From the IMG/VR virus record IMGVR_UViG_3300032272_000001, positions 103,273 through 167,272 of that record: 64,000 nucleotides of DNA; one strand, 5' to 3'. The DNA comes from a virus (lineage: Duplodnaviria > Heunggongvirae > Uroviricota > Caudoviricetes). Shown here in pieces: positions 4,045 to 21,663 of the stretch; position 1 is the first letter of the stretch; the number at the start of each line of letters is the position of its first letter. Made by a program: the position numbers and the translations under genes. The notes under the pieces are model-generated. The model saw only the letters and a program-made list of their open reading frames with translations, ran no database searches and was not told the origin of the DNA.

Positions 4045-4731
4045 TTAAGCAACACCAGCAGCAAAATCCTGCGCCATAACTTTAGCATCTTCTAGTGTTT
4101 TTGCTTCCCATTCCCCACGTCCACATTTTACAATAGTATATGGATTTTCTTCATGTATATCAATTTCTTCTAATTCTGAAAGATCCAAATCTGGATCAAC
4201 GACATCATCTAATGAATTAGCCATTGCTATCATCACTGGTGTGTGTAAAATTCGAATTCCAGATCTATCAGGAAGAATTTGGCATTCATCTCTAGCCTGT
4301 TTTTTTCTTTCGGGACTGAGATCCCCCCAAAAATCTTCATGTGCTGTAATAAGATCTTCTGGAGTTGCGCCAACATATGCACAATCACCTTTAACTACAG
4401 AAGAACCAACACCAAAACCAAACATTGCTCTATGCGACCAACCATACCATTTTTGTTCTTTTTCACAAAAACCAATTCTACATTGTTTCCCTTCACCAAC
4501 ATCTGCATCCAATCTTGGTCTTGGTACAATTCCTCGATCATTACAAATATATGCAGTATCAACTACATTACCAATTTTATCACCGCCTGGTGTATAACAA
4601 TAAGTAATTTCTGTTGGTTCTTCTAATTCACTATGCCACCATAGTTCATCATGAATATTATACACGCCTTTAAGTCCAAGACGCTTATTCAAAAGTTTAC
4701 TTTTCATATTTATATCCTTATAGTCTTTCAT
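4045..4731 (-). CDS. hypothetical protein
   Basis: ORF of 228 aa. Antisense ORFs inside it are rejected. Confidence 0.55.
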   Translation of the reverse strand: MKDYKDINMKSKLLNKRLGLKGVYNIHDELWWHSELEEPTEITYCYTPGGDKIGNVVDTAYICNDRGIVPRPRLDADVGEGKQCRIGFCEKEQKWYGWSHRAMFGFGVGSSVVKGDCAYVGATPEDLITAHEDFWGDLSPERKKQARDECQILPDRSGIRILHTPVMIAMANSLDDVVDPDLDLSELEEIDIHEENPYTIVKCGRGEWEAKTLEDAKVMAQDFAAGVA

Positions 4732-6696: not shown

Positions 6697-7014
6697 TTAT
6701 GCGGTTAGATGATTGGTAGTAACCAAAACAACGCGTTCAAAACCATCATGAACTATAATTGAAAAATTAGTATATGTTTTTACCCAACAAACACGAAGAT
6801 CTTCTGTACCGATATCTGTTAGATTTGGATCATATCTAATTTTAGCAATACGATATGCTTCGGTATAATTTTCATCTATAACAGCTTGAGCTATATCACC
6901 ATCAAGACACATTCCAGGTATATCGTCACGTGTAGACCATCCAATACCATATCCAGGAGAATATACAATAGCTGTATAACCATTTTTAATTAACTTATTC
7001 ATTTTTTCCTTCAC
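6697..7014 (-). CDS. hypothetical protein
   Basis: 105 aa. Confidence 0.5.
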   Translation of the reverse strand: MKEKMNKLIKNGYTAIVYSPGYGIGWSTRDDIPGMCLDGDIAQAVIDENYTEAYRIAKIRYDPNLTDIGTEDLRVCWVKTYTNFSIIVHDGFERVVLVTTNHLTA

Positions 7015-7751
7015 TTAATTACTTTATTTAATTCTTGTAATGTTCTAATAATGATTAAAGTTTCATCACCTAATTTAGTACCACCTCTTGTCCTAGTCCA
7101 ATGTTCAATTGCTTCTGGGACTGTGAAATACCTGCAACCAGCAATGATTCTATCAATACCATCTTTATCAGGTACAAGAATAAATTCATATCTATCTGAT
7201 CTTTTAATTTGTGGAAACGGTTTTGATACTCTTACATCACCAGATACTACAGCATTACCAGATACTAGAGCATTACCATATACTCTAGCATAGCCAAATA
7301 CTTTAGCATTATCATATACTTTTGCATCCCCATATACTCCAGCATTATCACATACTACAGCATTATCACATACTTTAGCATTACCATATACTACAGCATC
7401 ATCAAATACTTCAGCATCACCAAATACTTGAGCATTGCCAGCTACTACAGCATTATCATATACTCTAGCATCACCATATACTAGAGCATCACCAGATACT
7501 TCAGTATCATCATATACTTGAGCATCACCAAATACTTCAGCATCATCATATACTCTTGTATTACCAAATACTCTAGCATCGCCATATACTCTAGCATCGC
7601 CATATACTCTTGCATTACCAAATACTTTAGCATTATCACATACTTTAGCATTAGGTCCAATATAAGCAGTATCTTCTACATATGCAGTATCTGCAACAAG
7701 ACCACCACCATTGGTATGTTTATGAAATCCTGACATTGTGTGTTCCTTCAC
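7011..7751 (-). CDS. Hexapeptide-repeat family paralog (246 aa) with conserved C-terminal domain
   Basis: N-term MSGFHKHTNGGGLVADTAYV, about 25 V-x-[GD]-[ND]-A-x repeats, C-term SKPFPQIKRSDRYEFILVPDKDGIDRIIAGCRYFTVPEAIEHWT. Confidence 0.75.
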   Translation of the reverse strand: MKEHTMSGFHKHTNGGGLVADTAYVEDTAYIGPNAKVCDNAKVFGNARVYGDARVYGDARVFGNTRVYDDAEVFGDAQVYDDTEVSGDALVYGDARVYDNAVVAGNAQVFGDAEVFDDAVVYGNAKVCDNAVVCDNAGVYGDAKVYDNAKVFGYARVYGNALVSGNAVVSGDVRVSKPFPQIKRSDRYEFILVPDKDGIDRIIAGCRYFTVPEAIEHWTRTRGGTKLGDETLIIIRTLQELNKVIK

Positions 7752-8254
7752 TTAATTACTTTATTTAATTCTTGTAATGTTCTAATAATGATTAAAGTCT
7801 CATTGCATAAACTAGTTCCATATCTTGTTTTTGTCCAATGTTCAATTGCTTCTTCGATACTAAAATACCTGCAACCAACAATGATTCTATCAATACCATT
7901 TTTATCTGGCACAAGAATAAATTCATATCTATCTGATCTTTTAATTTGTGGAAATGGTTTTGATACTCTTGCATCACCATATACTAGAGCATTACCAGAT
8001 ACTACAGCATTATCATATACTTTTGCATCACCATATACTTCAGCATCATCATATACTCTTGCATAACCAAATACTTGAGCATTACCAGATACATGAGCAT
8101 TACCATATACGCTAGCATCACCAGACACTTTAGCATAACCAGACACTTTAGCATTAGGTCCAATATAAGCAGTATCTGCAACAGTTGCAGTATCTGCAAC
8201 AAGACCACCACCATTGGAGTGTCTATGAAATCCTGACATATTATTTTCCTTCAC
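7748..8254 (-). CDS. Hexapeptide-repeat family paralog (168 aa)
   Basis: Same N- and C-terminal modules with fewer repeats. Start overlaps the upstream stop. Confidence 0.75.
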   Translation of the reverse strand: MKENNMSGFHRHSNGGGLVADTATVADTAYIGPNAKVSGYAKVSGDASVYGNAHVSGNAQVFGYARVYDDAEVYGDAKVYDNAVVSGNALVYGDARVSKPFPQIKRSDRYEFILVPDKNGIDRIIVGCRYFSIEEAIEHWTKTRYGTSLCNETLIIIRTLQELNKVIK

Positions 8255-8742
8255 TTAATTTCTTTATTTAATTCTTGTAATGTTCTAATAATTTTTAAGG
8301 TTTCGGTTCCTAGTTTAGTTCCGTATCTTGTTTTTGTCCAATGTTCAATTGCTTCTGGGACTGTAAAGTATCTGCAACCAGCAATTATTCTATCAATACC
8401 ATCTTTATCTGGTACAAGAATAAAATCATATCCATCTGATCTTTTAATTTGTGGAAACGGTTTTGATACTTTAACATCACCATATACACTTACATCACCA
8501 GATACTTTAACATGACCAGATACTCTAGCATTACCATATACATGAGCATTACCAGATATTACAGCTTTACCAAATACTTTAGCATAACCAAATACTAGAG
8601 CATTACCATATACTCTTGCATTACCAAATACTTTAGCATAACCAAATACTTTAGCATCTGGTCCAATAAAAGCAGTATCTTCTACATATGCAGTATCTGC
8701 AACAAGACCACCACCATTGATATGTTTATGAAATCCTGACAT
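8251..8742 (-). CDS. Hexapeptide-repeat family paralog (163 aa)
   Basis: Same architecture. Confidence 0.75.
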   Translation of the reverse strand: MSGFHKHINGGGLVADTAYVEDTAFIGPDAKVFGYAKVFGNARVYGNALVFGYAKVFGKAVISGNAHVYGNARVSGHVKVSGDVSVYGDVKVSKPFPQIKRSDGYDFILVPDKDGIDRIIAGCRYFTVPEAIEHWTKTRYGTKLGTETLKIIRTLQELNKEIK

Positions 8743-8743
8743 A

Positions 8744-8914
8744 TTATTTTCCTTTACTTAATTTTTTGACACAAGAATCATGAGAGGCGCTATACCATTC
8801 ATGTCCCATTTTTTCACATCTCTGACCAAATGTAGCACCACTAGCCAAAATACCAACAAGTAAAATAATAGATAATACCAAAAAAATCACAAATGTTTTA
8901 TAAATTCTATTCAT
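8744..8914 (-). CDS. small membrane protein (likely start at the internal Met at 8914; a longer ORF runs to 8986)
   Basis: TM helix FVIFLVLSIILLVGILASGA. The start at 8914 sits 5 nt after the upstream gene's stop. Confidence 0.4.
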   Translation of the reverse strand: MNRIYKTFVIFLVLSIILLVGILASGATFGQRCEKMGHEWYSASHDSCVKKLSKGK

Positions 8915-9293
8915 GACTACTCCAAACATAATCAGAGACAATAAATCCATAAAATTCAAAATCATCACCAACTTCTTTATATTCATTTATTGTTGCAATA
9001 CCATATGGAATTATTGCAAATTGACATGGCATATCATATAATGACATAAATTCTTTTCCATTAAAATTATCCATAAAAACAAATTCCCCAATCAGATCAT
9101 AATTATGATCCAACCTAAGATTTGTTACTGTTGCACAACGAGTATCATATTGACTAATTGTTTCGAAATAGATAAACAAATTATTATTAATAATCTTATC
9201 ATAAACATCAAAACCAAGAAAATGGTTCTTTCGATAGATTAAACCACCAGTTGTGGAAGATGGTTTATTCAACTCAATTTTAAATTTAGTCAT
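8907..9293 (-). CDS. hypothetical protein
   Basis: 128 aa. Confidence 0.5.
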   Translation of the reverse strand: MTKFKIELNKPSSTTGGLIYRKNHFLGFDVYDKIINNNLFIYFETISQYDTRCATVTNLRLDHNYDLIGEFVFMDNFNGKEFMSLYDMPCQFAIIPYGIATINEYKEVGDDFEFYGFIVSDYVWSSHE

Positions 9294-9480
9294 ATTATTT
9301 CTCCATTAATGTGGTTGATTTGAGTAGGAGTCGAACCTACAATAATCTCATTACGTCGCGCTGTTTGAGATACAGTAGGTTTCACCATGAGCGCGGAAAC
9401 TATTGATTTCGCAATAATCCCATCCATATCGGCTTAGCCCACACTGCTATTTACCAATTTCAGCATCAAATCATATTTAA

Positions 9481-10236
9481 TTATTTTTCCTTAAAATGTG
9501 CTTCTACCATATCCAACCATAATAGAGATTGTTGAGATAATTTAGATCCATCTCCACGCCTATGATTAGTCCAATATTTCCTAGCTTCTAAAATATTTTT
9601 TACTACACAACCAGCATATATTTTAATACCATCATCATTTTTCTGTGCAATATGCTGATAACCGTCTGTTCGTGTCATAATAGGACCAATATTTGTACGA
9701 TAATTACCATCCAAATCATTAAATTTTGTTGATTTTAAATCAGCATTATTAAAATTAGCACTACTTAAATAACAGAAGTTAAATACACAATTCCTCAGAT
9801 CACAATCACTAAAATTAGTTTTGTACATTCCAACATCTATGAATCTACTATCCGAAAAAGAACTACCAGTAAAATCAATAAAATCTAAACACTTATACTT
9901 AAATTTACAATTAAAAAAAATACATTTTTGTGAATTCTGATCAAAAATAATATCAGACAAATCTTTATTAACAAATTCAAGCTGTTGACCTTTAGTATTA
10001 TCATCAAGCCATAGTAGATGTTTTTTGTATTTCTTATCGTATTTCTTCTGAGTAATCTTTTTCATGTTATAATCCTTGGTAACTTCGTAGTAATTTCGTA
10101 GTAACTGAGTAATCTTTTTCATGTTATAATCCTTGGTAATTTCGTAGTAACTTCGTAGTAACTTCGTAGTAACTTCGTAGTAACTTCGTATGTGTTGTAT
10201 TAAACCTAGTGTATATGGATATGCGCGTGTGGTCAA
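9481..10236 (-). CDS. Pentapeptide-repeat protein fused to the same C-terminal domain as the hexapeptide family; its N-terminal region carries internal tandem repeats
   Basis: Central A(D/N)(L/F)xx repeats (CKFKY KCLDF IDFTG SSFSD SRFID ... NADLK STKFN). C-term RTDGYQHIAQKNDDGIKIYAGCVV..EARKYWTNHRRGDGSKL aligns with the family's C-terminal domain. N-terminal start is uncertain. Confidence 0.6.
   Translation of the reverse strand: MTTRAYPYTLGLIQHIRSYYEVTTKLLRSYYEITKDYNMKKITQLLRNYYEVTKDYNMKKITQKKYDKKYKKHLLWLDDNTKGQQLEFVNKDLSDIIFDQNSQKCIFFNCKFKYKCLDFIDFTGSSFSDSRFIDVGMYKTNFSDCDLRNCVFNFCYLSSANFNNADLKSTKFNDLDGNYRTNIGPIMTRTDGYQHIAQKNDDGIKIYAGCVVKNILEARKYWTNHRRGDGSKLSQQSLLWLDMVEAHFKEK
10046..10200. 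repeat. Tandem DNA repeats (about 56-bp duplication plus 10-bp unit cttcgtagta x5) inside the 5' end of the pentapeptide-protein gene
   Basis: gtaatctttttcatgttataatccttggtaa occurs twice; acttcgtagta is iterated. Confidence 0.7.
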
Positions 10237-10237
10237 G

Positions 10238-10327
10238 AAAAAAAAATAAAAAAAAATTACATAGAGACAAGGCTTCTATAGCAGTAGTATAAAAAATAAA
10301 AAAAAATTACATAGAGACAAGGCTTCT
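10238..10327. repeat. Direct repeat (A-rich, about 38 bp x2: aaaaaaataaaaaaaaattacatagagacaaggcttct)
   Basis: Two copies at 10238..10277 and 10291..10327. Confidence 0.65.
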
Positions 10328-10442
10328 TCAATAACATCCCTAGCATAGTTGTATATAAAAGGGGGGGTGTCTTTTTTGCAACACTGTTACCTAAATGTTA
10401 CGTTACCCAAATGCCACAGTTGCTTATATACAACATAGTGTG

Positions 10443-10512
10443 GTGTGGCAATTAAGCCACACCTTTTTGTATTACCAAATACTCTTGCATGTGTGTGACA
10501 ATTAAGTCACAC
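10443..10512. promoter_or_regulatory. Pair of near-identical hairpins sharing the loop AATTAA (gtgtggc-aattaa-gccacac and gtgtgac-aattaa-gtcacac)
   Basis: Stems of 7 bp at 10443..10462 and 10493..10512 in a non-coding gap. The loop resembles the gcAATTgc core of the terminators at 3844 and 33808. Confidence 0.45.
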
Positions 10513-10669
10513 GTATTAAGCCCGGAGAATCCGTCTAATTTCGGCCTTAATTTCTTTATTGCTTGGCTCGCGGCCAAGCCTTGCCGCCAGTTTGTTCCAA
10601 ATTGTTTCGGGGTTATTATTCGTAACCGTGAAATTGACTTGCATTGGATTCATTCCTTATAGTGAGGGT

Positions 10670-10981
10670 TTAAGACAAAGTGATATATTTCCAATCTATC
10701 GCTTTTGATATGTCAGTATCATAGCCAAATATTTCATTTTTGAGGAAATTGAATACTTTATCCTTTTCCCCAATAATATGGTTATAAGTGACTCTTGATG
10801 TTTTTTCAGTTCCCCAATATTCATGTGTCACACGAACATAAAAACCAGCTTTTAGTAGCTTTTTAGTAAAGCGCTCGGCAATCGGCGCAAAAATGTCATA
10901 GCTTGAAAGGTGGATCGTGGTTTCAATCATCAAAGAAGAAGACATAACAGAAGCTCGCTTGTTTGTGTTTCGTCTAACCAT
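10670..10981 (-). CDS. hypothetical early protein
   Basis: 103 aa; preceded by a minus-strand promoter module at 10985..11010. Confidence 0.5.
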   Translation of the reverse strand: MVRRNTNKRASVMSSSLMIETTIHLSSYDIFAPIAERFTKKLLKAGFYVRVTHEYWGTEKTSRVTYNHIIGEKDKVFNFLKNEIFGYDTDISKAIDWKYITLS

Positions 10982-10984
10982 GAA

Positions 10985-11010
10985 TATAAACGAATCTAGC
11001 CTAGAGTCAA
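10985..11010 (-). promoter_or_regulatory. Early sigma70-like promoter module on the minus strand (TTGACT-N16-TTATAT)
   Basis: Reverse complement of agtcaa at 11005..11010 with an AT-rich -10. Confidence 0.45.
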
Positions 11011-11180
11011 CTACACAACCACTGTTTAAAGGTTTTTATTGAAAAATTATCATCGCCCCACACACAATCAATGAACAGTGTGTAGCGATCCCATAGCTTA
11101 TCAGGTGCATCTTGGTGCATGTTCCTTTGGCCTGCTATAAATCGCCTTCTGGCGGCTTCTGTATGGGCTGGAATAGTCAT
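11007..11180 (-). CDS. hypothetical small protein (57 aa, missing from the ORF track because it is under 60 aa)
   Basis: Manual translation MTIPAHTEAARRRFIAGQRNMHQDAPDKLWDRYTLFIDCVWGDDNFSIKTFKQWLCS. Confidence 0.3.
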   Translation of the reverse strand: MTIPAHTEAARRRFIAGQRNMHQDAPDKLWDRYTLFIDCVWGDDNFSIKTFKQWLCS

Positions 11181-11234
11181 ATTAAACCTTTAGAATGATG
11201 AGAGTGTGGTTGTTTGTTACTAATGCCGATAACC

Positions 11235-11408
11235 CTAGAGTCCGTTTTTGGCTGATAGATCGCTGGCAGCCTTGCGGAGCGCCATAGCAGTTAATTGACA
11301 ATCAATCCCTTCCATAATGCCGTTGTCGTCGTGTAATATCAATCTATTGGCTTTGCGTTCATATATTGCGGCCAACTCACGGAGTTTATTCACGGCTTGT
11401 AGAGTCAT
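11235..11408 (-). CDS. hypothetical small protein (57 aa, under the 60-aa track cutoff)
   Basis: Manual translation MTLQAVNKLRELAAIYERKANRLILHDDNGIMEGIDCQLTAMALRKAASDLSAKNGL. Confidence 0.3.
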   Translation of the reverse strand: MTLQAVNKLRELAAIYERKANRLILHDDNGIMEGIDCQLTAMALRKAASDLSAKNGL

Positions 11409-11421
11409 GATGGTTTAACCT

Positions 11422-11718
11422 TTAGGTTTTGGTGCGCAAGCGAAATTGTGGGCGTGTGTCTTGATATCGCCAACCAGCCATTACCCCGCGCGCATGAAAC
11501 ATATAATAATTGTAGCCAGTATCCTTTATTTTGCTGGCAATCTCACGGCCCACCGCTATTTTGTCGTCTACAAAAACAATTTCAATGGTTGATTCCATCC
11601 AATCGCCAGGGTGCATCAAATATATTCCACCCAAATTTGGAGTCTCTGTTTCAAATTGTTCATAATATTGGGCAAAGGTGCAAATACCGTCAATCGCGTC
11701 ACTGTGTGAATATTTCAT
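11422..11718 (-). CDS. hypothetical protein
   Basis: 98 aa ORF. The antisense ORF 11448..11735 is rejected. Confidence 0.45.
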   Translation of the reverse strand: MKYSHSDAIDGICTFAQYYEQFETETPNLGGIYLMHPGDWMESTIEIVFVDDKIAVGREIASKIKDTGYNYYMFHARGVMAGWRYQDTRPQFRLRTKT

Positions 11719-11720
11719 TG

Positions 11721-11969
11721 TTATTCGCCTTTTAACCCTTCCAGCCTTCTGGCGTCATACTCACACGCAATAAAATCCCGCGCGGCAGTCAAAGAAATAC
11801 AGCCCTGTCTTTTACAATAAATTGTATATGCTTCGAAAACATTATCATACGGGCCAAAAATATGGCCAGCAACGCTATTGTGTGCTGAAACAACAATGTA
11901 ATGATTCGAATCGGTTGTATCCTTATAGATAATAAAGGATTTAGTATCAGACTGTAAGGCGGTTTTCAT
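11721..11969 (-). CDS. hypothetical protein
   Basis: 82 aa; minus-strand promoter at 12005..12033 upstream. Confidence 0.5.
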   Translation of the reverse strand: MKTALQSDTKSFIIYKDTTDSNHYIVVSAHNSVAGHIFGPYDNVFEAYTIYCKRQGCISLTAARDFIACEYDARRLEGLKGE

Positions 11970-12004
11970 AGTCTAAACTTTCGTTGCTTGTTTCGTCTAT
12001 CCCT

Positions 12005-12033
12005 GATACTAAAGGAATCTAGGCTAGAGTCAA
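12005..12033 (-). promoter_or_regulatory. Early promoter module, minus strand (TTGACTctagcctagattccttTAGTATC)
   Basis: Shares its core with the modules at 13055, 13424, 13717, 14056 and 14373. Confidence 0.5.
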
Positions 12034-12465
12034 CTAGAATCGACCAGGCGCGGGCGGTAGAGGAGTCCATTCTGTGATATTATCATCACCATATTGCTCG
12101 GATACAAGTTTTTTGATCCCTTCCCTATTGACACATCTACCAATAGCCCAAAATCCGGGCGGCTTTCCTGGATGGCCATCGCTATCAATCCACACAAGAA
12201 TATTCTTATATGAATAAGCCGCTTCTAGTGAGGCGTTAATCATGTCATTATTGTGTTTAATACGGTTAACCGCATGAGTGATATTCCCAGAAGAGCCGCC
12301 AATGATGTTATTTCCGTTCGAATCATACAGCAAGAAACCACCGTAGCATTTTTCAGCCCATCCAATAAACTCACCATCACAATATACAACAATGTGCGTA
12401 TCAAAACGCTTTTTCGGAAGTCTTAGCACTGAATATTCTGAATTTTCTGGTTTTTCTTTAGTCAT
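12034..12465 (-). CDS. hypothetical protein
   Basis: 143 aa. Confidence 0.5.
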   Translation of the reverse strand: MTKEKPENSEYSVLRLPKKRFDTHIVVYCDGEFIGWAEKCYGGFLLYDSNGNNIIGGSSGNITHAVNRIKHNNDMINASLEAAYSYKNILVWIDSDGHPGKPPGFWAIGRCVNREGIKKLVSEQYGDDNITEWTPLPPAPGRF

Positions 12466-12508
12466 AATCTCAACACTTTCGCTTGTTTCTGTTTATGCTG
12501 GCCGCGAT

Positions 12509-13018
12509 TTACCGACAGCTATAGATTAGGCGATCGCCCCCAATCGTTGTTTCGATATAATCACAACTCAAATCAGCCGCAATCGCGTCATAATCGATAT
12601 AATTGGCTAAATGTTCTGGAATATCGCCGAATAGACCATTATCAACCAATTCCTCTGCAAGATCGCGCATACTAGAGCAATGATAGATATCAACTTCAAA
12701 ATCTGATTCAGGATCAACCGAATCAGCATCAAAAGGATAGGAACACTCGCCAACCGCAATAATAAAGATGGTTTTCTCATGATCGGACCATGATACCTCA
12801 CAGTCAATATATTTTTCGATATTGGCCTGATTAATGCCCCATGCTTCCGACAATTCACAATCAATGGTTTCGCCGTCAATAAAATCAATTTCAAATTCTT
12901 CCACCTTGTCGCCATGGCTATTCCGCGCTTTGGACGCCTTTTCTGTGTATTCTTCGAACGTTTCGAAGTAGAATCCAGTGGCAGAAATATCATAAGGATT
13001 TGCGAAAAATTTGGACAT
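12509..13018 (-). CDS. Acidic protein, putative ArdA-like antirestriction (DNA-mimic) protein
   Basis: 169 aa and very acidic. C-terminal NYIDYDAIAADLSCDYIETTIGGDRLIY resembles the ArdA C-terminal motif (nY.DyeA.arDL...) as I recall it. Not verified by search. Confidence 0.4.
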   Translation of the reverse strand: MSKFFANPYDISATGFYFETFEEYTEKASKARNSHGDKVEEFEIDFIDGETIDCELSEAWGINQANIEKYIDCEVSWSDHEKTIFIIAVGECSYPFDADSVDPESDFEVDIYHCSSMRDLAEELVDNGLFGDIPEHLANYIDYDAIAADLSCDYIETTIGGDRLIYSCR

Positions 13019-13054
13019 ATCAGAAGCTCTCTGTGTGTGTTTCGTCTGATTTTG

Positions 13055-13082
13055 ATACTAAAGGAATCTAAGGGAGAGTCAA
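13055..13082 (-). promoter_or_regulatory. Early promoter module, minus strand, driving 12509..13018
   Basis: TTGACTctcccttagattccttTAGTAT read on the minus strand. Confidence 0.5.
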
Positions 13083-13083
13083 A

Positions 13084-13389
13084 TTATTTCTTAGCCATTC
13101 GTGCAGCATTTTGACACACTACGTTATTATATATTTCTGCTACTTTAGTTTCTGCTATCATATTATCTGCATCGCCGCGTAATGCCGCTTCAAGGGCCAG
13201 TTTGTAATGCTTTTCCGCAATGTCACTCAATCGCAGATTATTTGATGTTGTGACTATATTTTGCGCTTCGGCAAAATTGTCATAAGTGCCATAGTATAGC
13301 GCGGAGTAACATCCCATAATGTAGTAAACTTCGATTTCTGAATTATTATCAACATAAACAATTTCAGAGAATTTGACCGGGTTGGACAT
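13084..13389 (-). CDS. hypothetical protein
   Basis: 101 aa. Confidence 0.5.
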   Translation of the reverse strand: MSNPVKFSEIVYVDNNSEIEVYYIMGCYSALYYGTYDNFAEAQNIVTTSNNLRLSDIAEKHYKLALEAALRGDADNMIAETKVAEIYNNVVCQNAARMAKK

Positions 13390-13423
13390 ATCAGAAGCTC
13401 TCTTGTGTGTTTCGTTAAGACTG

Positions 13424-13451
13424 ATACTAAAGAAATTGAATGGAAAGTCAA
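13424..13451 (-). promoter_or_regulatory. Early promoter module, minus strand
   Basis: TTGACTttccattcaatttcttTAGTAT. Confidence 0.5.
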
Positions 13452-13462
13452 TCCCTAATTTG

Positions 13463-13693
13463 TTAGCAATGCGCCAGAACCAACGGATCTAGTGTTTTGA
13501 TGTTTATCAATTCACCCTCGATTCCGCGCTCGATATAAGTACCCGATTTGACCGGCTTGGCCATAATTCGCCATGAATTATCATATTGAGCATTCAAAAA
13601 TTTGTGCATGGCGTCACTAGATTTGAATGCACGCACCTTAACCCTATACTTAAAACCGTTGCCAGTTTTAACATTTTTCCGAATTGAGAACAT
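13463..13693 (-). CDS. hypothetical basic protein
   Basis: 76 aa. Confidence 0.45.
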   Translation of the reverse strand: MFSIRKNVKTGNGFKYRVKVRAFKSSDAMHKFLNAQYDNSWRIMAKPVKSGTYIERGIEGELINIKTLDPLVLAHC

Positions 13694-13716
13694 TTTATTT
13701 CCTTCCGTTAAGGCAG

Positions 13717-13744
13717 ATACTAAGGGAATCTAATGGAGAGTCAA
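13717..13744 (-). promoter_or_regulatory. Early promoter module, minus strand
   Basis: TTGACTctccattagattcccttAGTAT. Confidence 0.5.
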
Positions 13745-14022
13745 GCTCTATTTTCGTTGTGGCGTACTGCCGCATCTAATGCCTCTGCATATTCGCCATA
13801 ATAATTATAACAATGGCCAGAATCAAGGCCAAAGACACACCATTCTTTAAACGAATCATCATATTCAACATAAACGGATTCTTTGATGCCACGTGAAGAA
13901 TGTTCGACTGTAGGTCCAGGTCCAAAATACGCCTTATTAGACACTGTAACATTGCCTAGCCCTCTAACCTTTCTATGCACTCTAGCATTACCGCGAACTA
14001 TGGCAGTGTTATATATTGGCAT
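13741..14022 (-). CDS. hypothetical protein
   Basis: 93 aa. Confidence 0.5.
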   Translation of the reverse strand: MPIYNTAIVRGNARVHRKVRGLGNVTVSNKAYFGPGPTVEHSSRGIKESVYVEYDDSFKEWCVFGLDSGHCYNYYGEYAEALDAAVRHNENRA

Positions 14023-14055
14023 TGGATGTTCCTTAATCGAGTTGCGTTAAGACTG

Positions 14056-14083
14056 ATACTAAAGAAATCTAATGGAGAGTCAA
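14056..14083 (-). promoter_or_regulatory. Early promoter module, minus strand
   Basis: TTGACTctccattagatttctttAGTAT. Confidence 0.5.
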
Positions 14084-14086
14084 TCT

Positions 14087-14341
14087 CTATTCTACCTGAA
14101 ACGCTATTGTTACAGTGTCGCATGATCCAATACCATAGTCCCACGCGTCATGATATCGCATGAATCCTCTGCCCTTATCATCGACCGGGCAAAGGCATCG
14201 AAACATGCCATATTCAGCGGATTCAGCTTGATAAAATGCCTCAATTGCATCTATATCATGCTCTTCGAGACCACTATAATCATCATTGATCAATGCACAA
14301 AGCCAATGTGCTGGCAAAACGTATTCAACAATTCTCATCAA
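14087..14341 (-). CDS. hypothetical acidic protein
   Basis: 84 aa. Confidence 0.5.
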   Translation of the reverse strand: MMRIVEYVLPAHWLCALINDDYSGLEEHDIDAIEAFYQAESAEYGMFRCLCPVDDKGRGFMRYHDAWDYGIGSCDTVTIAFQVE

Positions 14342-14372
14342 ACTAGCCTCAATTGAGTTGCGTTAGAGCCAA

Positions 14373-14399
14373 ATATAAAGAGACGCTGGAACGAGTCAA
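14373..14399 (-). promoter_or_regulatory. Early promoter module, minus strand (TTGACTcgttccagcgtctctTTATAT)
   Basis: First promoter of the leftward early block; it lies at the edge of the divergent region. Confidence 0.45.
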
Positions 14400-14950
14400 G
14401 TCACAAGATTGTGATTAGACAAAAGGACTCAGTTAGTATCTCATTGGTGTAACTATTTTGCCACAAAGGGGTTTGATGCAGAAAAACAACACTATTGTAT
14501 ATATGTCACAGTTGCGTCTATGCAACTGTGTTGTATTATTATCACTGTGTTGCATAATGGTAGCACTGTTGCATTTGTGCGTCTATAGTGATATATAGGA
14601 CACAGAGACATAATGGACACACTATGTTGCATTTATGTCACAGTTGCGTCTATGTTACAGTGTGATATATAGGCCACAGAGACACAAAAATGTCACAGAG
14701 ACACAAAAATGTCATAGAGACACGTGGCCTCATATTACGTTTTTTCGATTATTCTACATTCCCCAAAATATCTGATATTTTATCTAATATAAGATTTTAA
14801 TTTTTCATACTATATTATTCCACTATATGGACATTACTATAATTCTAGTACAATAGTAATATACTATGTAATTGAGTTACAATAGAGCTAAAATCTCAAT
14901 TTCAAACAAAAATAGTTTGAAACTACAGATTAGTAGGTATATAACCACGC
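14400..14950. repeat. Non-coding divergent control region rich in palindromes and tandem motifs (cacagttgcgtctatgcaactgtg; cacagagacacaaaaatgt x3), followed by an AT-rich stretch. It separates the leftward and rightward early blocks. Candidate origin or regulatory hub
   Basis: No ORF of 60 aa or more. Contains the perfect inverted repeat cacagttgc..gcaactgtg at about 14505..14530 and a degenerate copy at about 14640..14665; tandem gtcacagagacacaaaaat at 14682..14730; more than 80% AT over 14750..14940. Confidence 0.5.
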
Positions 14951-15267
14951 TAGTTACTACACAATAACTTTTCAATAAGATCAATGATAAATTGAGGCTC
15001 ATTTGATGTAATATCACCACGATTAACTCCCATAACATAACTCAATTTATAGTTACCCGAATTATTAAACATAAGCACCATACTATCATTCCAAGCAAAA
15101 TAAAATGAGCCATAATTATCTAATTCAAGAATAGGATGTTTTGTTGTATTAATACCATGATCAATCATTTTTAACATTGCATTAAGAGAATTATCATTAA
15201 TACTAATATTGTTTTTTTGTGCTAATGTTATAATATCTTTAATAGACGTATCAAAATCAATAATCAT
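14950..15267 (-). CDS. hypothetical protein; paralog of 15288..15614 and 20705..21025
   Basis: Shared pattern ..SL.a....G.L...W.d...........; 105 aa. Confidence 0.5.
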   Translation of the reverse strand: MIIDFDTSIKDIITLAQKNNISINDNSLNAMLKMIDHGINTTKHPILELDNYGSFYFAWNDSMVLMFNNSGNYKLSYVMGVNRGDITSNEPQFIIDLIEKLLCSN

Positions 15268-15287: not shown

Positions 15288-15614
15288 TTATATTGCAGAT
15301 TCTGCTTTCACTACTGTTAATTTTTGCAATAATGGCTCGATTGTGGTAATAATGAAATCAAGATCACTTGTTGTAATATCACCATAGCAATCCTTAAAAT
15401 CAAAGGATAAATTAAATTCTTTATAATCTACTTGATCTACATCAGAAAATACAATAATGATGGAATCATCATCCCAATTTGCAGATAATACACCATCATC
15501 ATTCCTATTTACTATAAAATCATTCTCTGAATCAAATTTCCGAAGAAGAAATTTTGACAGTGCACTAAGAGACGATTCATTGATAATGTCGCCTTTTTCA
15601 AAGATTTTACACAT
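15288..15614 (-). CDS. hypothetical protein; paralog of 14950..15267
   Basis: 108 aa. Confidence 0.5.
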   Translation of the reverse strand: MCKIFEKGDIINESSLSALSKFLLRKFDSENDFIVNRNDDGVLSANWDDDSIIIVFSDVDQVDYKEFNLSFDFKDCYGDITTSDLDFIITTIEPLLQKLTVVKAESAI

Positions 15615-15689: not shown

Positions 15690-15717
15690 TTGACATCACT
15701 CTAGAATCCACTATGAT
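15690..15717 (+). promoter_or_regulatory. Early promoter module (TTGACA-N16-TATGAT), first of a repeated series on the + strand
   Basis: ttgacatcactctagaatccactatgat followed by a conserved leader (ccagatatcagataacaaagggaacataatATG). Confidence 0.55.
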
Positions 15718-15747
15718 CCAGATATCAGATAACAAAGGGAACATAAT

Positions 15748-16168
15748 ATGTCAGAATTTCATAAACACTCCAATGGTGGTGGATTAGTAGAGTCTACTGC
15801 AACAGTATCTGATACTGCTTTTATTGGACCTAATGTTATAGTATGTGATAATGCAAGAGTATCTGGTACTGCTCTAGTATGTGATAATGCAAGAGTATCT
15901 GATGATGTTCTAGTATTTGGTGATGCAAGAGTATCTGATGATATTAAAGTATATGATAATGCTATAGTATCTGATGATGTTCTAGTATTTGGTGATGCAA
16001 GAGTATCTGGTCATGCAAAAGTATTTGGTGATGCTAAAGTAGCTGGCTATGCTATAGTATGATAATGCAAGAGTATCTATTGGACAGAAACGAGATATGG
16101 AACTAAATTAGGTGATGAAACACTTGAAATTATTTCTATGCTACAGAAATTAAAGTCAATTATGGATT
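15748..16168 (+). pseudogene. Decayed hexapeptide-family copy: intact N-terminus and 104 codons, then in-frame TGA TAA, then the last 26 codons of the C-terminal domain in the same frame (an internal deletion)
   Basis: gtatgataatgc here versus gtatgtgataatgc in intact copies (2-bp loss). The segment encoding SKPFP...EAIEH is missing and the sequence resumes at YWTETRYGTKLGDETLEIISMLQKLKSIMD*. Confidence 0.6.
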
Positions 16169-16194
16169 GACATCCCTCTAGAATCCACTATGAT
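16167..16194 (+). promoter_or_regulatory. Early promoter module
   Basis: ttgacatccctctagaatccactatgat. Confidence 0.55.
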
Positions 16195-16225
16195 ACAAGA
16201 TATCAGATAACAAAAGGAACATAAT

Positions 16226-16897
16226 ATGACAAAATTTCATAGACACTCCAATGGTGGTGGTCTTGTTGCAGATACTGCAAGAGTATCTGATACTGCTTTT
16301 ATTGGACCTAATGCAAGAGTATTTGGTAATGCTGAAGTATATGGTAATGCTATAGTATTTGGTAATGCTGTAATATCTGGTGATGCTGTAGTATATGGTA
16401 ATGCTAAAGTGTCTGGTAATGCTAGAGTATACAACAATGCTAAAGTATCTGATGATGCTAGAGTATACAGCAATGCTAAAGTATATGGTAATGCTAGAGT
16501 ATGTGATAATGCTGTAGTATGTGATAATGCTATAGTATCTGGTGATGCAAGAGTATATGGTGATGCAAGAGTATTTGATAATGCTGTAGTATGTGATAAT
16601 GCTTCAGTATCTGATGATGCTATAGTATGTGATCATGCAAGAGTATTTGGTGATGCAAAAGTATTTGGTGATGCTCTAGTATCAAAACCATTTCCAAAAA
16701 TCACCAGATCAGATAGATATGATTTTATTCTTGTGCCAGATAAAGATGGAGTCGATAGAATCATTGCTGGTTGCAGGTATTTTAGTATCGAAGAAGCAAT
16801 TGAACATTGGACAGAAACAAGAGGTGGAACTAAACTAGGAACCGAAACCTTAAAAATTATTGATATGTTACAAGAATTAAAGTCAATTATTGATTGA
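16226..16897 (+). CDS. Hexapeptide-repeat family paralog (223 aa)
   Basis: Conserved N/C modules and about 21 repeats. Confidence 0.75.
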   Translation: MTKFHRHSNGGGLVADTARVSDTAFIGPNARVFGNAEVYGNAIVFGNAVISGDAVVYGNAKVSGNARVYNNAKVSDDARVYSNAKVYGNARVCDNAVVCDNAIVSGDARVYGDARVFDNAVVCDNASVSDDAIVCDHARVFGDAKVFGDALVSKPFPKITRSDRYDFILVPDKDGVDRIIAGCRYFSIEEAIEHWTETRGGTKLGTETLKIIDMLQELKSIID

Positions 16898-16921
16898 CAA
16901 CACCATAGATTGGTGTATGAT
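16894..16921 (+). promoter_or_regulatory. Early promoter module (overlaps the stop codon of the upstream gene)
   Basis: ttgacaacaccatagattggtgtatgat. Confidence 0.55.
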
Positions 16922-16951
16922 CCAGATATCAGATAACAAAAGGAACATAAT

Positions 16952-17533
16952 ATGTCAGAATTTCATAGACACTCCAATGGTGGTGGATTAGTAGAGTCTA
17001 CTGCTAGTGTTGCTGATACTGCTTATATTGGACCTAATGCTGTAGTAGCTGGTAATGCTGTAGTAGAGGGCAATGCTATAGTAGATGGCAATGCTAAAGT
17101 ATTTGATAATGCTAGAGTAACTGGTCATGCTCTAGTATCTGGTAATGCTCAAATATTTGGTAATGCTCAATTATATGGTTATGCTATGGTATATGGTGAT
17201 GCTAAAGTATTTGATAAGGTTATAGTATCTGGTACTGCAAGAGTATTTGGTGATGCTGAAGTATATGATAATGCTGTAGTATCTGGTGATGCTGTAGTAT
17301 CTGGTGATGCTCTAGTATCAAAACCGTTTCCAAAAATTACTAGATCAGATGGATATGATTTTATTCTTGTACCAGATAAAGATGGTATTGATGTAATAAT
17401 TGCTGGTTGCAGATACTTTAGTATCGAAGAAGCAATTGAACATTGGACAGAAACAAGATATGGAACTAAATTAGGTGATGAAACTATGTTGATTATTGAA
17501 ACATTGCAGAAATTAAAGTCAATTATGGATTGA
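16952..17533 (+). CDS. Hexapeptide-repeat family paralog (193 aa)
   Basis: Same architecture. Confidence 0.75.
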   Translation: MSEFHRHSNGGGLVESTASVADTAYIGPNAVVAGNAVVEGNAIVDGNAKVFDNARVTGHALVSGNAQIFGNAQLYGYAMVYGDAKVFDKVIVSGTARVFGDAEVYDNAVVSGDAVVSGDALVSKPFPKITRSDGYDFILVPDKDGIDVIIAGCRYFSIEEAIEHWTETRYGTKLGDETMLIIETLQKLKSIMD

Positions 17534-17557
17534 CAACACCATAGATTGCTGTATGAT
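17530..17557 (+). promoter_or_regulatory. Early promoter module
   Basis: ttgacaacaccatagattgctgtatgat. Confidence 0.55.
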
Positions 17558-17585
17558 CCAGATATAGAAACAAAGGGAAAATGAT

Positions 17586-18221
17586 ATGTCAGGATTTCAT
17601 AGACATCCAAATGGTGGTGGTCTAGTAGAGTCTACTGCATATGTAGAAGATACTGCTTTTATTGGACCAGATGCTAGAGTAACTGGTGATGCTGAAGTAA
17701 CTGGTAATGCTCAAGTATTTGGTAATGCAAGAGTATCTGGTAATGCTAAAGTATTTGATAAGGTTATGGTATATGGTCATGCTTTAGTATCTGGTAATGC
17801 TATGGTATATGGTCATGCTTTAGTATCTGGTAATGCTATGATATCTGATAATGCTGAAGTATTTGATGATGCTAGAGTATATGGCTATGCTCATGTATTT
17901 GGTAATGCTCAAATATTTGGTAATGCTGTAATATTTGGTAATGTAAAAGTAGCTGGTAAAGCTGTAATATCTGGTAATGCAAGAGTATATGGTAATGCTG
18001 TAGTATCAAAACCATTTCCACGCATTCCTAGATCAGATGGATATGATTTTATTCTTGTACCTGATAAAGATGGTATTGATAGAATCATTGCTGGATGTAG
18101 ATATTTCACAGTCCCAGAAGCAATTGAACATTGGACAGAAACGAGATATGGAACCAAATTAGGAAGCGAGACTATGTTGATTATTGAAACATTGCAGAAA
18201 TTAAAGTCAATTATTGATTGA
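17586..18221 (+). CDS. Hexapeptide-repeat family paralog (211 aa)
   Basis: Same architecture. Confidence 0.75.
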   Translation: MSGFHRHPNGGGLVESTAYVEDTAFIGPDARVTGDAEVTGNAQVFGNARVSGNAKVFDKVMVYGHALVSGNAMVYGHALVSGNAMISDNAEVFDDARVYGYAHVFGNAQIFGNAVIFGNVKVAGKAVISGNARVYGNAVVSKPFPRIPRSDGYDFILVPDKDGIDRIIAGCRYFTVPEAIEHWTETRYGTKLGSETMLIIETLQKLKSIID

Positions 18222-18275
18222 CAACAACATAGAATCCACTATGATCAAGATATCAGATAACAAAGGGAACATACC

Positions 18276-18515
18276 ATGGATTTTGATGCTTTAAGAGAAT
18301 TAAAATCGGATTTGAATCATATTGTAACAAGATATGATCGTAAACAAGAAAATAAAAAATGTTATAATCATTATGCGCTTGGCATATATATGATTGCGGT
18401 TGATAATGCGATTAATGATATTGATAATGGTGCGAAGACAATTGATGCCATTAACAATAGATTCAATGACAGATTGCTTGCATTTATTTTGAAGAATTTA
18501 GATATAAAGGATTGA
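18276..18515 (+). CDS. hypothetical small protein (unrelated insert within the array)
   Basis: 79 aa; promoter module at 18228..18255. Confidence 0.5.
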   Translation: MDFDALRELKSDLNHIVTRYDRKQENKKCYNHYALGIYMIAVDNAINDIDNGAKTIDAINNRFNDRLLAFILKNLDIKD

Positions 18516-18521
18516 CATAAT

Positions 18522-19103
18522 ATGTCAGAATTTCATAAACATCCTAATGGTGGTGGATTAGTAGAGTCTACTGCAACAGTATCTGATACTGCTTATATTG
18601 GTCCTAATGCTGTAGTAGCTGGTAATGCTGCGGTACTTGGTAATGCTATAGTATCTAATAATGCTATAGTATCTAATAATGCAAGAGTATCTAATAATGC
18701 TCAAGTATATGGCGATGCTAAAGTGTCTGGTAATGCTCAAGTATTTGATAATGCTGAAGTATATGGTGATGCTCAAGTATTTGATAAGGTTATGGTATAT
18801 GGTACTGCTAGAGTATATGATAATGCTGTAGTATCTGGTAAAGCTGTAATATCTGGTGATGCTGTAGTATCTGGTGATGCTGTAGTATCAAAACCGTTTC
18901 CAAAAATTACTAGATCAGATGGATATGATTTTATTATTGTACCTGATTTATCTGGTAGTGATAGAATCATTGCTGGCTGTAGATATTTTAGTATCGAAGA
19001 AGCAATTGAACATTGGACAGAAACAAGATATGGAACTAAACTAGGCGATGAAACACTTGAAATTATTTCTATGCTACAGAAATTAAAGTCAATTATGGAT
19101 TGA
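18522..19103 (+). CDS. Hexapeptide-repeat family paralog (193 aa)
   Basis: Only a truncated upstream module survives here (ttgacataatATG). Confidence 0.75.
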   Translation: MSEFHKHPNGGGLVESTATVSDTAYIGPNAVVAGNAAVLGNAIVSNNAIVSNNARVSNNAQVYGDAKVSGNAQVFDNAEVYGDAQVFDKVMVYGTARVYDNAVVSGKAVISGDAVVSGDAVVSKPFPKITRSDGYDFIIVPDLSGSDRIIAGCRYFSIEEAIEHWTETRYGTKLGDETLEIISMLQKLKSIMD

Positions 19104-19158
19104 CATACCTCTAGAATCCACTATGATCAAGATATCAGATAACAAAGGAATAACTCAA

Positions 19159-19566
19159 ATGAAAAAATCAGATTTTGTTAGTGGTTTTATTGAGGCCGCA
19201 CTATGGTCATCTACATATGAACATGATGATTGCGAGGATTGTGTGGAAGGTTGTTGCAATCCCAATTGTGATGATGGCAAACATGAATTGTCACATAAAG
19301 CACGAAAAATGTTGACTGAGATTGCAGAAACATTTTTCGATAAGCACAATGCTCTATTCACTAATGATAATCTCATTCGACCATTAGTATGTTCTGTGTC
19401 CGAATACGCTGGCCATGATTTTTGGTTAACCAGCCAAGGACATGGTTGCGGGTTTTGGGATGGCGATTGGAATGAACCGGCTTCAACCATACTGACAGAG
19501 GCTAGCAAATGTGTAGGAGAAAAGCATTTTTATGTCAATTCTAATGGCGAATTTGATATAGAATAG
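19159..19566 (+). CDS. hypothetical Cys-rich protein (start at internal Met; the track ORF begins at 19123 inside the promoter)
   Basis: CEDCVEGCCNPNCDDGKHELSH motif; RBS aaaggaata. Confidence 0.5.
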   Translation: MKKSDFVSGFIEAALWSSTYEHDDCEDCVEGCCNPNCDDGKHELSHKARKMLTEIAETFFDKHNALFTNDNLIRPLVCSVSEYAGHDFWLTSQGHGCGFWDGDWNEPASTILTEASKCVGEKHFYVNSNGEFDIE

Positions 19567-19622
19567 TTGACATACATATAGAATCTGATATGATCCAGAT
19601 ATAGAAACAAAGGGAACATAAT

Positions 19623-20420
19623 ATGTCAGAATTTCATAAACATATCAATGGTGGTGGATTAGTAGAGTCTACTGCAACAGTTGCAGTATCTGCTTATATT
19701 GGACCTAATGCTAAAGTATTTGGTAATGCTAAAGTGTTTGGTTATGCTCTAGTATGTGATTATGCTGTAATATCTGGTGATGCTGTAATATCTGGTTATG
19801 CTAAAGTATATGATAATGCTGTAATATCTGGTGATGCTGTAGTATGTGATAATGCTAGAGTATCTGGCTATGCTCAAATATTTGGTAATGCTCAAGTATA
19901 TGGTAATGCTCTAGCATTTGATAAGGTTATGGTATATGGTGATGCAAGAGTATTTGGTAATGCTCAAGTATATGATGATGCTAGAGTATACAGCAATGCT
20001 AGAGTATCTGGTGATGCAAGAGTATTTGGTGATGCTGTAGTATTTGATAATGCTCTAGTATTTGATAAGGTTATGGTATATGGTACTGCAAGAGTATATG
20101 GTGATGCAAAAGTATATGATAATGCTATAGTAACTGGTAATGCTATAGTAACTGGTAATGCTATAGTATATGGCAATGTTCAAGTATCTGGTGATGCTAG
20201 AGTATCAAAACCATTTCCACAAATTAAAAGATCAGATAGATATGATTTCATTCTTGTGCCAGATAAAAATGGTACTGAAATAATAATTGCTGGTTGCAGA
20301 TACTTTACAGTTCCAGAAGCTATTGAACATTGGACAGAAACAAGAGGTGGAACCAAATTAGGTGATGAGACTATGCTGATTATCGAAACATTGCAGAAAT
20401 TAAAGTCAATTATTGATTGA
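19623..20420 (+). CDS. Hexapeptide-repeat family paralog (265 aa, the longest)
   Basis: About 28 repeats; promoter module at 19567..19594. Confidence 0.75.
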   Translation: MSEFHKHINGGGLVESTATVAVSAYIGPNAKVFGNAKVFGYALVCDYAVISGDAVISGYAKVYDNAVISGDAVVCDNARVSGYAQIFGNAQVYGNALAFDKVMVYGDARVFGNAQVYDDARVYSNARVSGDARVFGDAVVFDNALVFDKVMVYGTARVYGDAKVYDNAIVTGNAIVTGNAIVYGNVQVSGDARVSKPFPQIKRSDRYDFILVPDKNGTEIIIAGCRYFTVPEAIEHWTETRGGTKLGDETMLIIETLQKLKSIID

Positions 20421-20472
20421 CATCACTCTAGAATCTGATATAATCAAGATATAGAAACAAAGGGAACGTACA

Positions 20473-20673
20473 ATGTCTAATATGTCATACTGCCGTTGGG
20501 AAAATACCTCAAAAGATCTAATGGATTGTGTTGAAGATTTTGGAGAATTTGTTGAAGATGGCGGAACACTTGATGAATATCTTGAAAAGCTATCATCAAG
20601 CGAACGGCGCGCATTTAATAAGATCATAAACGAGTGTAATTTGTTTATGTCACTATACGAAGATTCTGAATAA
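20473..20673 (+). CDS. hypothetical small acidic protein
   Basis: 66 aa; promoter module at about 20417. Confidence 0.5.
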   Translation: MSNMSYCRWENTSKDLMDCVEDFGEFVEDGGTLDEYLEKLSSSERRAFNKIINECNLFMSLYEDSE

Positions 20674-20704
20674 ATATCGCCGCGTAACTATTCAAGGGGA
20701 TGTA

Positions 20705-21025
20705 ATGACTTGTATCTTGAAACCAATGATAAGAGATTTGAAAATACATGCAAAATACAATGGTATTAAGATCAATGAAACATCACTGAAAGGAGCGATT
20801 GCCTTTCTTGAGAAGAATGAATTGATTCATGCTCCAACATTATTTGTTTCTGATAATGGCGTTTTGACTTTACAGTGGGATAATAAGCAATTATATTTCA
20901 CAGTAGAGTTTAAGGATGATCAATTCACATATGATTGTCATGTTTATAATAGCAACATCAAAGGAACCGGAACTACTAGACGACTAGCAGATATCACGAA
21001 AATAGTCAAAACAATAAGGATATAA
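20705..21025 (+). CDS. hypothetical protein, third member of the small paralog family (14950, 15288)
   Basis: INETSLKGAIAFL...DNGVLTLQWDNKQLYF is similar to the two minus-strand paralogs. Confidence 0.5.
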   Translation: MTCILKPMIRDLKIHAKYNGIKINETSLKGAIAFLEKNELIHAPTLFVSDNGVLTLQWDNKQLYFTVEFKDDQFTYDCHVYNSNIKGTGTTRRLADITKIVKTIRI

Positions 21026-21249: not shown

Positions 21250-21306
21250 TTGACATACCACTAGAATCTGCTATGATTAGATCATCGACAACAAAGGAAC
21301 ATTATT

Positions 21307-21648: not shown

Positions 21649-21663
21649 ACCGAAAGGAATGAT

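Follow-up and report, generated by a model that had tools for sequence, protein, structure and literature searches.

A three-domain ArdA-family gene behind a putative early promoter in the genome of a T4-like phage

ArdA is a textbook anti-restriction protein. The subject of this study is an ardA gene found in a 64,000-nucleotide (nt) stretch of tailed-phage DNA (positions 103,273 to 167,272 of IMG/VR virus record IMGVR_UViG_3300032272_000001); this whole stretch is called the window, and all coordinates refer to it. The coding sequence lies on the minus strand from 12509 to 13018 as an intact open reading frame (ORF) of 169 codons with an ATG start and a TAA stop. A preliminary description of the locus, made from the nucleotide sequence alone, had portrayed the product as a strongly acidic protein of 169 amino acids (aa) and a candidate ArdA-like DNA mimic. 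The portrayal of the protein was correct: it contains 40 acidic residues (20 Asp and 20 Glu, as against 6 Lys and 4 Arg), has a net charge of −30 and an isoelectric point (pI) of 4.05, and is the most acidic among 13 neighbouring minus-strand ORFs. All three of its domains are negatively charged: domain 1 (aa 1–49, 13018–12872) carries −6, domain 2 (aa 50–107, 12871–12698) −13, and domain 3 (aa 108–169, 12697–12512) −11. Members of the ArdA family have about 160–177 aa, a pI near 4, and a surface dense in Asp and Glu (PMC2731889, PMC13091555), and the size, pI and Asp/Glu density of the window protein fall within that range. Support for the reading frame comes from over 1100 homologues, whose alignment with the protein starts at residue 1; a 128-aa ORF that overlaps it in a different frame has no support.

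Sequence comparisons placed the protein in the ArdA family. Residues 36–159 matched positions 39–150 of the 155-position Pfam profile PF07275 (ArdA) with 35.5 bits (E 1.9e-8), above the gathering score of 27, so that the profile match proposed as a check in the preliminary description was in fact obtained. PHROG families 2059 and 14321, both annotated as anti-restriction protein, were matched at E of about 1e-6; among the NCBIfam profiles no ArdA model matched, and the one weak match that appeared was spurious. A search of a large protein database returned 1107 matches. The closest were proteins of about 168 aa with 57–67% identity over 96–100% of the length, named ArdA by NCBI, UniRef and JGI and found in Yoonia, Phaeobacter, Tateyamaria, Sulfitobacter, Agrobacterium, Zavarzinia and Sphingomonadales, that is, in Rhodobacteraceae and other Alphaproteobacteria. 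A precomputed PF07275 assignment was present in 119 of the 120 homologues listed. The exact window protein was also found in the protein database on a contig of 176,134 bp; a Logan contig (L001) is 100% identical to the window and does not count as independent evidence. In an alignment of 34 family sequences the window protein keeps all 30 invariant columns, as it must by construction, and its mean identity to the other members (0.60) is close to that of the others among themselves (0.63). A neighbour-joining tree placed it inside, not outside, the diversity of the family. The top sequence match in the PDB was ArdA ORF18 of Tn916 (2w82); this HMMER match covered domain 3 only, with E 6e-4 from the single sequence and 5.6e-6 from the family profile.

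The fold was predicted with AlphaFold2 as a single chain on the family alignment, and the model had a mean predicted local distance difference test score (pLDDT) of 96.1 and a predicted template modelling (TM) score of 0.87. When the PDB was searched with Foldseek, the only significant matches were the two chains 2w82_A and 2w82_B (probability 1.00, TM score 0.57–0.62, 180–187 aligned columns), and the next match had E 1.5. In the model, domain 1 has three strands and one helix (E3–8, E16–18, H21–30, E42–48), domain 2 four helices (H51–60, H67–76, H79–91, H103–106), and domain 3 three strands and three helices (E109–112, H117–126, H135–140, H143–150, E155–159, E162–168). The crystal structure of ArdA is elongated, with a three-stranded sheet and one helix in domain 1, a four-helix bundle in domain 2, and a three-stranded sheet and three helices in domain 3 (PMC2731889). 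The predicted elements of the window protein thus equal this description in order and content, and the structure prediction that the preliminary description had suggested agrees with ArdA. We conclude that the ORF encodes a genuine, full-length, three-domain member of the ArdA family.

The HMMER alignment to 2w82 also located the anti-restriction motif, which in ORF18 ArdA spans residues 126–140 at the dimer interface and whose residue roles were described by McMahon et al. (2009; PMC2731889). Its counterpart in the window protein is aa 129–143 (LFGDIPEHLANYIDY; 12590–12634, minus strand), which is identical to the ORF18 sequence ALGEVPASLQNYIDY at 8 of the 15 positions. The genetically essential Y137 and I138 of ORF18 correspond to Y140 and I141, the contact residue L134 to L137, and the hydrogen-bond partners D139 and D146 to D142 and D149 (D149 codon at 12574–12572); all of these are conserved. 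G131, P134, Y140 and D142 are invariant in the 34 family members. The C-terminal string quoted in the preliminary description, ANYIDYDAIAADLSCDYIETTIGGDRLIY, is residues 138–166 of this protein, and the likeness to ArdA noted there is real: it falls on the Belogurov-Delver anti-restriction motif, with Y140 and I141 retained.

The close bacterial relatives are located in conjugative or integrative elements. Near one bacterial ardA relative (L002) are genes for a relaxase, for a coupling protein of the TraG type and for resolvases; a second (L008) lies with a complete Trb/VirB type IV secretion system (T4SS; TrbC, VirB3, VirB4, TrbL, VirB8, CagX and TrbI) and with TraG, TraD and MobA; a third (L007) lies with a resolvase and a reverse transcriptase with SLATT. 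In viral DNA, a tblastn search of 50,697 deposited phage genomes with the protein gave no match at E 1e-5. When 2.9 million viral contigs were scanned with a pattern-based profile, relatives turned up at 18 loci, the best at 52% identity, and all full-length matches were on contigs of 46 kb or less. The two best copies (51–52% identity; L016 and L017) lie on real phages. In L016, a metagenomic viral contig of 45.7 kb, the 52%-identical ArdA is encoded at 8001–8504, and an integrase and a T7-type RNA polymerase lie about 2 kb downstream (10453–14406); L017 encodes a tail-fibre chaperone domain.

A sigma-70-like promoter is predicted for ardA at 13055–13082 on the minus strand, with a −35 hexamer TTGACT (13082–13077), a conserved spacer of 16 nt, and a −10 hexamer TAGTAT (13060–13055). 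It follows directly on the stop codon with which the upstream gene ends, and 36 nt separate it from the ATG. The 5′ leader and translation-initiation region between them (13019–13054, minus strand; ending in ACGAAACACACACAGAGAGCTTCTGAT-ATGTCC) is nearly identical to those of a 101-aa ORF (13389) and a 91-aa ORF (10945), through the start codon and the following bases to ATGTC (repeat families D6 and D11). A pattern search found further minus-strand copies of the promoter cassette ahead of an 82-aa ORF (12006–12033), the 101-aa ORF (13424–13451), a 76-aa ORF (13717–13744), and a 93-aa ORF (14056–14083), and a promoter scan found a variant, TTGACT-N16-TATATT, ahead of an acidic 84-aa DUF6926-like ORF (14372–14399) and the 91-aa ORF with its ATG at 10945 (10983–11010), both on the minus strand. 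The exact pattern TTGACT-N16-TAGTAT has five matches, where 0.18 were expected. Conservation of the cassette takes in the spacer and roughly 15 nt further downstream, and a copy stands ahead of each of seven small ORFs from 10.9 to 14.4 kb.

A looser signature, TTGAC-N7-TAGAWTYC, has 21 matches genome-wide, where 0.52 were expected; nearly all precede small genes, on the plus strand at 15.7–30.5 kb and on the minus strand among the genes around ardA. From this distribution we conclude that the cassette is a local variant of the phage's own early-promoter class. The copies on the plus strand (15690–30509) read TTGACA…TAGAATC(C/T), and those on the minus strand (10991–14083) read TTGACT…TAGATTCC. 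The conservation of the spacer suggests selection for something beyond recognition of the sigma-70 hexamers. By its promoter type, ardA would be expressed early in infection.

The next gene downstream is a 143-aa ORFan (12034–12465, minus strand) that begins 43 nt from the end of ardA. No promoter cassette was found between 12509 and 12465, either by the pattern search or by alignment of the intergenic regions, and because this ORF has no promoter copy of its own it probably shares a transcript with ardA. The preliminary description had spoken of an individually promoted early block, which finds support at the level of promoter consensus only. Among 5.8 billion clusters the 143-aa protein matched only itself; it had no Pfam or PHROG match, and its AlphaFold2 model had a pLDDT of 39. 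We considered it as a conserved partner of ardA and rejected this, as the ORF that follows ardA in L008 is not related to it.

The ardA gene and about 11 other small ORFs make up a compositional island of about 4.4 kb (10300–14750) with a GC content of 0.38–0.47 and a GC content at third codon positions (GC3) of 0.28–0.48. The backbone has a GC content of about 0.33 and a GC3 of 0.07–0.21, whereas all ORFs between 10670 and 14341 have a GC3 of 0.28–0.48 (0.376 for ardA). In a 300-nt profile the GC content rises near 10,300 and falls near 14,750. These edges coincide with two repeat families that are confined to them in the whole window: the upstream edge is a repeat-dense non-coding stretch (14495–14722) with two copies each of TGTCTCTRTGACATTTTT and ATAGACGCAACTGTGACAT and a 9-bp hairpin, and the downstream edge (10252–10445) carries degenerate copies of the same two families. 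More broadly delimited, the repeat-dense non-coding stretches at the two edges cover 14400–14760 and 10250–10520, and their motifs (TGTCTCTRTGACATTTTT, ATAGACGCAACTGTGACAT and the GCAACTGTG hairpins) are absent from the rest of the 64 kb. Possible roles are those of operators, iterons or terminators, or the repeats could be scars of recombination; no Rfam family was found in the island or its edge repeats.

The ten island neighbours of ardA belong to no Pfam or PHROG family, apart from one sub-threshold match to DUF6926 (25.7 versus 27 bits). The protein with that match, from the 84-aa ORF at 14087–14341 (minus strand), has a net charge of −11 and a pI of 4.3, is preceded by its own variant cassette, and is possibly a further small counter-defence protein. 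In the product of the 93-aa ORF (13741–14022, minus strand), aa 3–44 are weakly like the β-solenoid genes found in the backbone at about 20.1 and 23.5 kb (E 0.001–0.003, about 40% identity). Just outside the island lies a pair of neighbouring acidic ORFs, 105 and 108 aa long and paralogous to each other (14950–15267 and 15288–15614, minus strand) with a low, backbone-like GC3; they had no relatives in 80 T4-like gp32 loci.

The DNA similarity between the window ardA and bacterial ardA loci (64–72% nt identity) ends at the ORF boundaries, which implies that ardA was captured as a single gene. Compared with six bacterial copies, the nonsynonymous divergence (dN) was 0.32–0.37 while the synonymous divergence (dS) was at saturation, which argues for long-standing purifying selection and against recent transfer from any sampled donor. 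The direction of transfer, we infer, was from conjugative element to phage. Because its promoters belong to the class that the phage itself uses and the 93-aa ORF is weakly like the backbone solenoid genes, the island itself is suggested to come from a related phage of higher GC content and not directly from a bacterium. A more specific idea is that the island is a cassette-based gene-capture array, in which promoter and leader modules serve as recombination points that take up single foreign ORFs and bring them under early expression; its repeat-bounded edges could then mark it as a transferable unit exchanged between phages. We hold this idea to be tentative and rather unlikely. The cassette pattern was not found in IMG/VR, and the flanking pentapeptide gene had no relatives in viral or metagenome contigs.

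The window encodes gp32, gp6-, gp7-, gp8- and gp53-type baseplate proteins, a T4 baseplate protein, and a gp23-like fragment. Placement among known phages was possible solely through gp6, whose best matches (35% identity) were to Caulobacter phage Cr30, phages of the Sinorhizobium phiM12 type, and Pelagibacter phage HTVC008M; relatives of gp32 in metagenomes had at most 50% identity. Neither a megablast search with 3 kb around ardA nor a tblastn search with a 1047-aa ORF of the window found a match among the 50,697 phage records. Judged by these proteins, the carrier is a deep-branching, poorly sampled T4-like myovirus, which plausibly infects an alphaproteobacterium. ArdA is absent from all 80 T4-like gp32 loci of marine or freshwater origin (859 kb) that were compared, and these loci are likewise without Tad6, the solenoid family described below, and the promoter signature.

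Other genes of the window were recorded as side observations. A 228-aa ORF at 4045–4731 (minus strand), in the same early arm as ardA, matches Pfam PF25188 (Tad6, an inhibitor of type I Thoeris) with 127 bits. Fifteen paralogous β-solenoid ORFs, matching PF18836 YdcK and Hexapep and bactofilin-like families, lie at 7011–10236 on the minus strand and 15748–31252 on the plus strand; such an expansion of early solenoid proteins to 15 paralogues is unusual. Most have an early promoter of their own, the DNA of the family shows 18-nt periodic repeats, and the member at 9481–10236 scores as a pentapeptide repeat. Near the 5′ end of this last ORF (10048–10201) there is a 57-nt tandem duplication that includes a Shine-Dalgarno-like sequence and an ATG, together with runs of an 11-nt repeat (GTAACTTCGTA; families D3 and D5), and the true start is probably not the TTG annotated at 10236. 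An orotidine-5′-phosphate decarboxylase (40561–41238, minus strand; PF00215, 101 bits) is encoded among structural genes, possibly as an auxiliary metabolic gene that serves the synthesis of pyrimidines. The plus-strand early region contains adjacent tRNA-Met(CAT) and tRNA-Arg(TCT) genes (28926–29089) and a gene for an SPFH/Band-7 domain protein (31529–32479).

The ArdA dimer mimics the DNA footprint of about 42 bp of a type I restriction-modification (R-M) enzyme and binds its methyltransferase core (PMC2731889), and diverse ArdAs from across phyla bind M.EcoKI (PMC3969726). On this basis we consider it quite probable that the window protein is an ArdA-family DNA mimic that blocks type I R-M of the host, is produced from an early promoter, and was captured as a single ORF. 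By analogy with characterized ArdA proteins, it would form a head-to-head homodimer through the helix carrying LANYIDY, with a surface rich in carboxylates that would resemble some 42 bp of bent B-form DNA. This dimer would fill the DNA-binding groove of the host type I enzyme, lying on the M2S1 core and extending to the HsdR contacts; phage DNA without modification would thereby escape cleavage, and modification might also be blocked. Soon after infection, unmodified host RNA polymerase would transcribe ardA from its own sigma-70-type promoter, probably into a message shared with the 143-aa ORFan. The gene would represent a subfamily otherwise of alphaproteobacterial conjugative elements, taken up as a single ORF into the promoter-cassette array of a foreign island. 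Of the ArdA-like anti-restriction role advanced in the preliminary description, the family, fold and motif are thus well founded, and inhibition of type I R-M is the part that we infer.

Several observations weigh against this interpretation. The direct Pfam score is modest at 35.5 bits, and the sequence link to a solved ArdA is limited to domain 3, the full-length link being made through the predicted structure. The essential VF motif of ORF18 (I160-F161) and F91 at the interface of its domains 2 and 3 have no confidently mapped counterparts; at the extreme C-terminus a hairpin turn of different length makes the HMMER alignment unreliable, and the family-conserved L164-I165-Y166, in which Y166 is invariant, is a plausible counterpart of VF. 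The promoters were called by consensus match only. Genome delivery by a T4-like phage is fast, and an ArdA made after entry would be a less certain guard of the incoming DNA than Ocr is in T7. Finally, the ArdA-like gp119 of a Fletchervirus inhibits endonuclease V (PMC13091555), so the fold does not fix the target.

This last observation is also the starting point for an alternative in which the protein is an ArdA-fold mimic whose main target is something other than type I R-M, such as a DNA-repair nuclease, a DNA-sensing defence, or a nucleoid or transcription protein. Titles cited in PMC7261183 state that ArdA, Arn and Ocr act on H-NS-dependent transcription, and the title of another paper states that ardA genes vary in the range of genes they regulate. 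The early region also holds other unusual proteins, namely the pentapeptide-repeat protein and the 15 β-solenoid proteins; pentapeptide-repeat proteins have been suggested as DNA mimics (PMC7261183). The resemblance of gp119 to ArdA, however, is structural only and confined to domains 2 and 3, whereas the window protein is about 60% identical to the conjugative subfamily over all three domains and retains every family-invariant residue. Of the full-length ArdAs cited here, all that have been assayed act on type I systems (PMC2731889, PMC3969726), and ColIb-P9 ArdA blocked EcoKI but did not inhibit BREX (PMC7261183), so Ocr-like breadth is not to be assumed. We regard another main target as distinctly improbable.

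Two further explanations would deny the gene its role altogether. Since ardA sits among the ORFans of a compositionally foreign island, and ArdA is found in 0 of the 80 related T4-like loci and so is not part of the lineage core, it might be a neutral or decaying passenger that came in with the island and brings the phage no benefit. A passenger would not be expected to be intact and full-length with 30 of 30 family-invariant positions kept, to have a dN that is low relative to saturated dS, to give a confident fold model, and to possess its own promoter and an initiation region common to neighbouring genes; we give this explanation very little credence. The other explanation is that the ORF is not an ArdA and resembles one by acidic composition. 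The profile search against PDB sequences did also meet designed helical-repeat proteins at a similar E value, and leucine-rich repeat proteins were among the weak phmmer matches. Such chance resemblance does not account for a Pfam score over the gathering cut-off, for hundreds of full-length ArdA-annotated homologues at E 1e-58 to 1e-65, for 2w82 as the sole significant structural match, or for a motif kept residue by residue. The Pfam match, the homologues and the structural match effectively refute a compositional artefact, whose likelihood we put close to nil.

The interpretation of the protein as an ArdA that acts on type I R-M has several consequences. It provides a confident functional label for one gene in an otherwise nearly unannotatable phage lineage, and it suggests that the host of the carrier phage has type I R-M. 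A conjugative-type ArdA behind a phage early promoter is direct evidence of an anti-restriction gene pool common to plasmids, integrative and conjugative elements and virulent-type phages. Together on one arm, ardA and the Tad6 gene mark the early region as an anti-defence locus, and the surrounding ORFans are therefore reasonable candidates for new counter-defence proteins. If the island is indeed a gene-capture array, the ORFans near ardA, including the 143-aa protein and the acidic DUF6926-like protein, become candidate new anti-defence genes. Existing knowledge of the mechanism of ArdA is left unchanged.

The arrangement of the island recalls the promoter early stem-loop (PeSL) cassettes of T4-type phages (Arbiol et al. 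2010, PMC2839356; Comeau et al. 2014, PMC4122927), in which a repeated sigma-70-like early promoter likewise precedes small, ORFan-rich genes in a variable region. In the window, by contrast, the −35 box abuts the upstream stop codon and three copies run on through the leader and start codon. Folding of five island cassettes gave z-scores of −0.79 to +1.09 and no stem-loop terminator, and a terminator scan found none in the cassettes; as the stem-loop is missing, we do not regard these cassettes as PeSLs in the strict sense.

Among characterized proteins, ORF18 ArdA of Tn916 (2w82) resembles the window protein in length (165 versus 169 aa), pI of about 4, domain order, fold (TM score about 0.6) and the Tyr-Ile pair. 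The two are only 18–20% identical in structural alignment, with sequence similarity detectable in domain 3 only, and they differ in carrier, a Gram-positive conjugative transposon versus a virulent-type T4-like phage. T7 Ocr (gp0.3) is by analogy a counterpart in its likely role, as an early, highly acidic, dimeric DNA mimic directed against type I R-M, but its fold and sequence are unrelated, and Ocr inhibits BREX while ColIb-P9 ArdA does not (PMC7261183). The gp119 protein of Fletchervirus NCTC 12673 (PMC13091555) is also acidic and ArdA-like, with domains 2 and 3 only, whereas the window protein has all three domains and a canonical sequence.

The nearest likeness is to the alphaproteobacterial subfamily of about 168 aa (P0012, P0018, P0020 and P0023), which has 57–67% identity to the window protein, charges of −21 to −34 and the same invariant residues. 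Genes of that subfamily lie beside relaxase, type IV coupling protein and T4SS genes and have a GC3 of 0.40–0.56, whereas the window ardA (GC3 0.38) lies in a phage early array behind a phage-type promoter, and its flanking DNA has no homology to theirs. Phage ArdA-like proteins of the same fold and annotation are already catalogued, in PHROG 2059 and 14321 and in BFVD, where the annotated antirestriction and ArdA-like proteins of Escherichia phage vB_EcoM_4HA13, Pantoea phage vB_PagM_SSEM1, and Streptomyces phages Zeigle and BRock have 12–24% identity to the window protein. What distinguishes the present gene from these is its T4-like carrier, its membership of a subfamily of conjugative elements, and its position in a foreign island driven by promoter cassettes.

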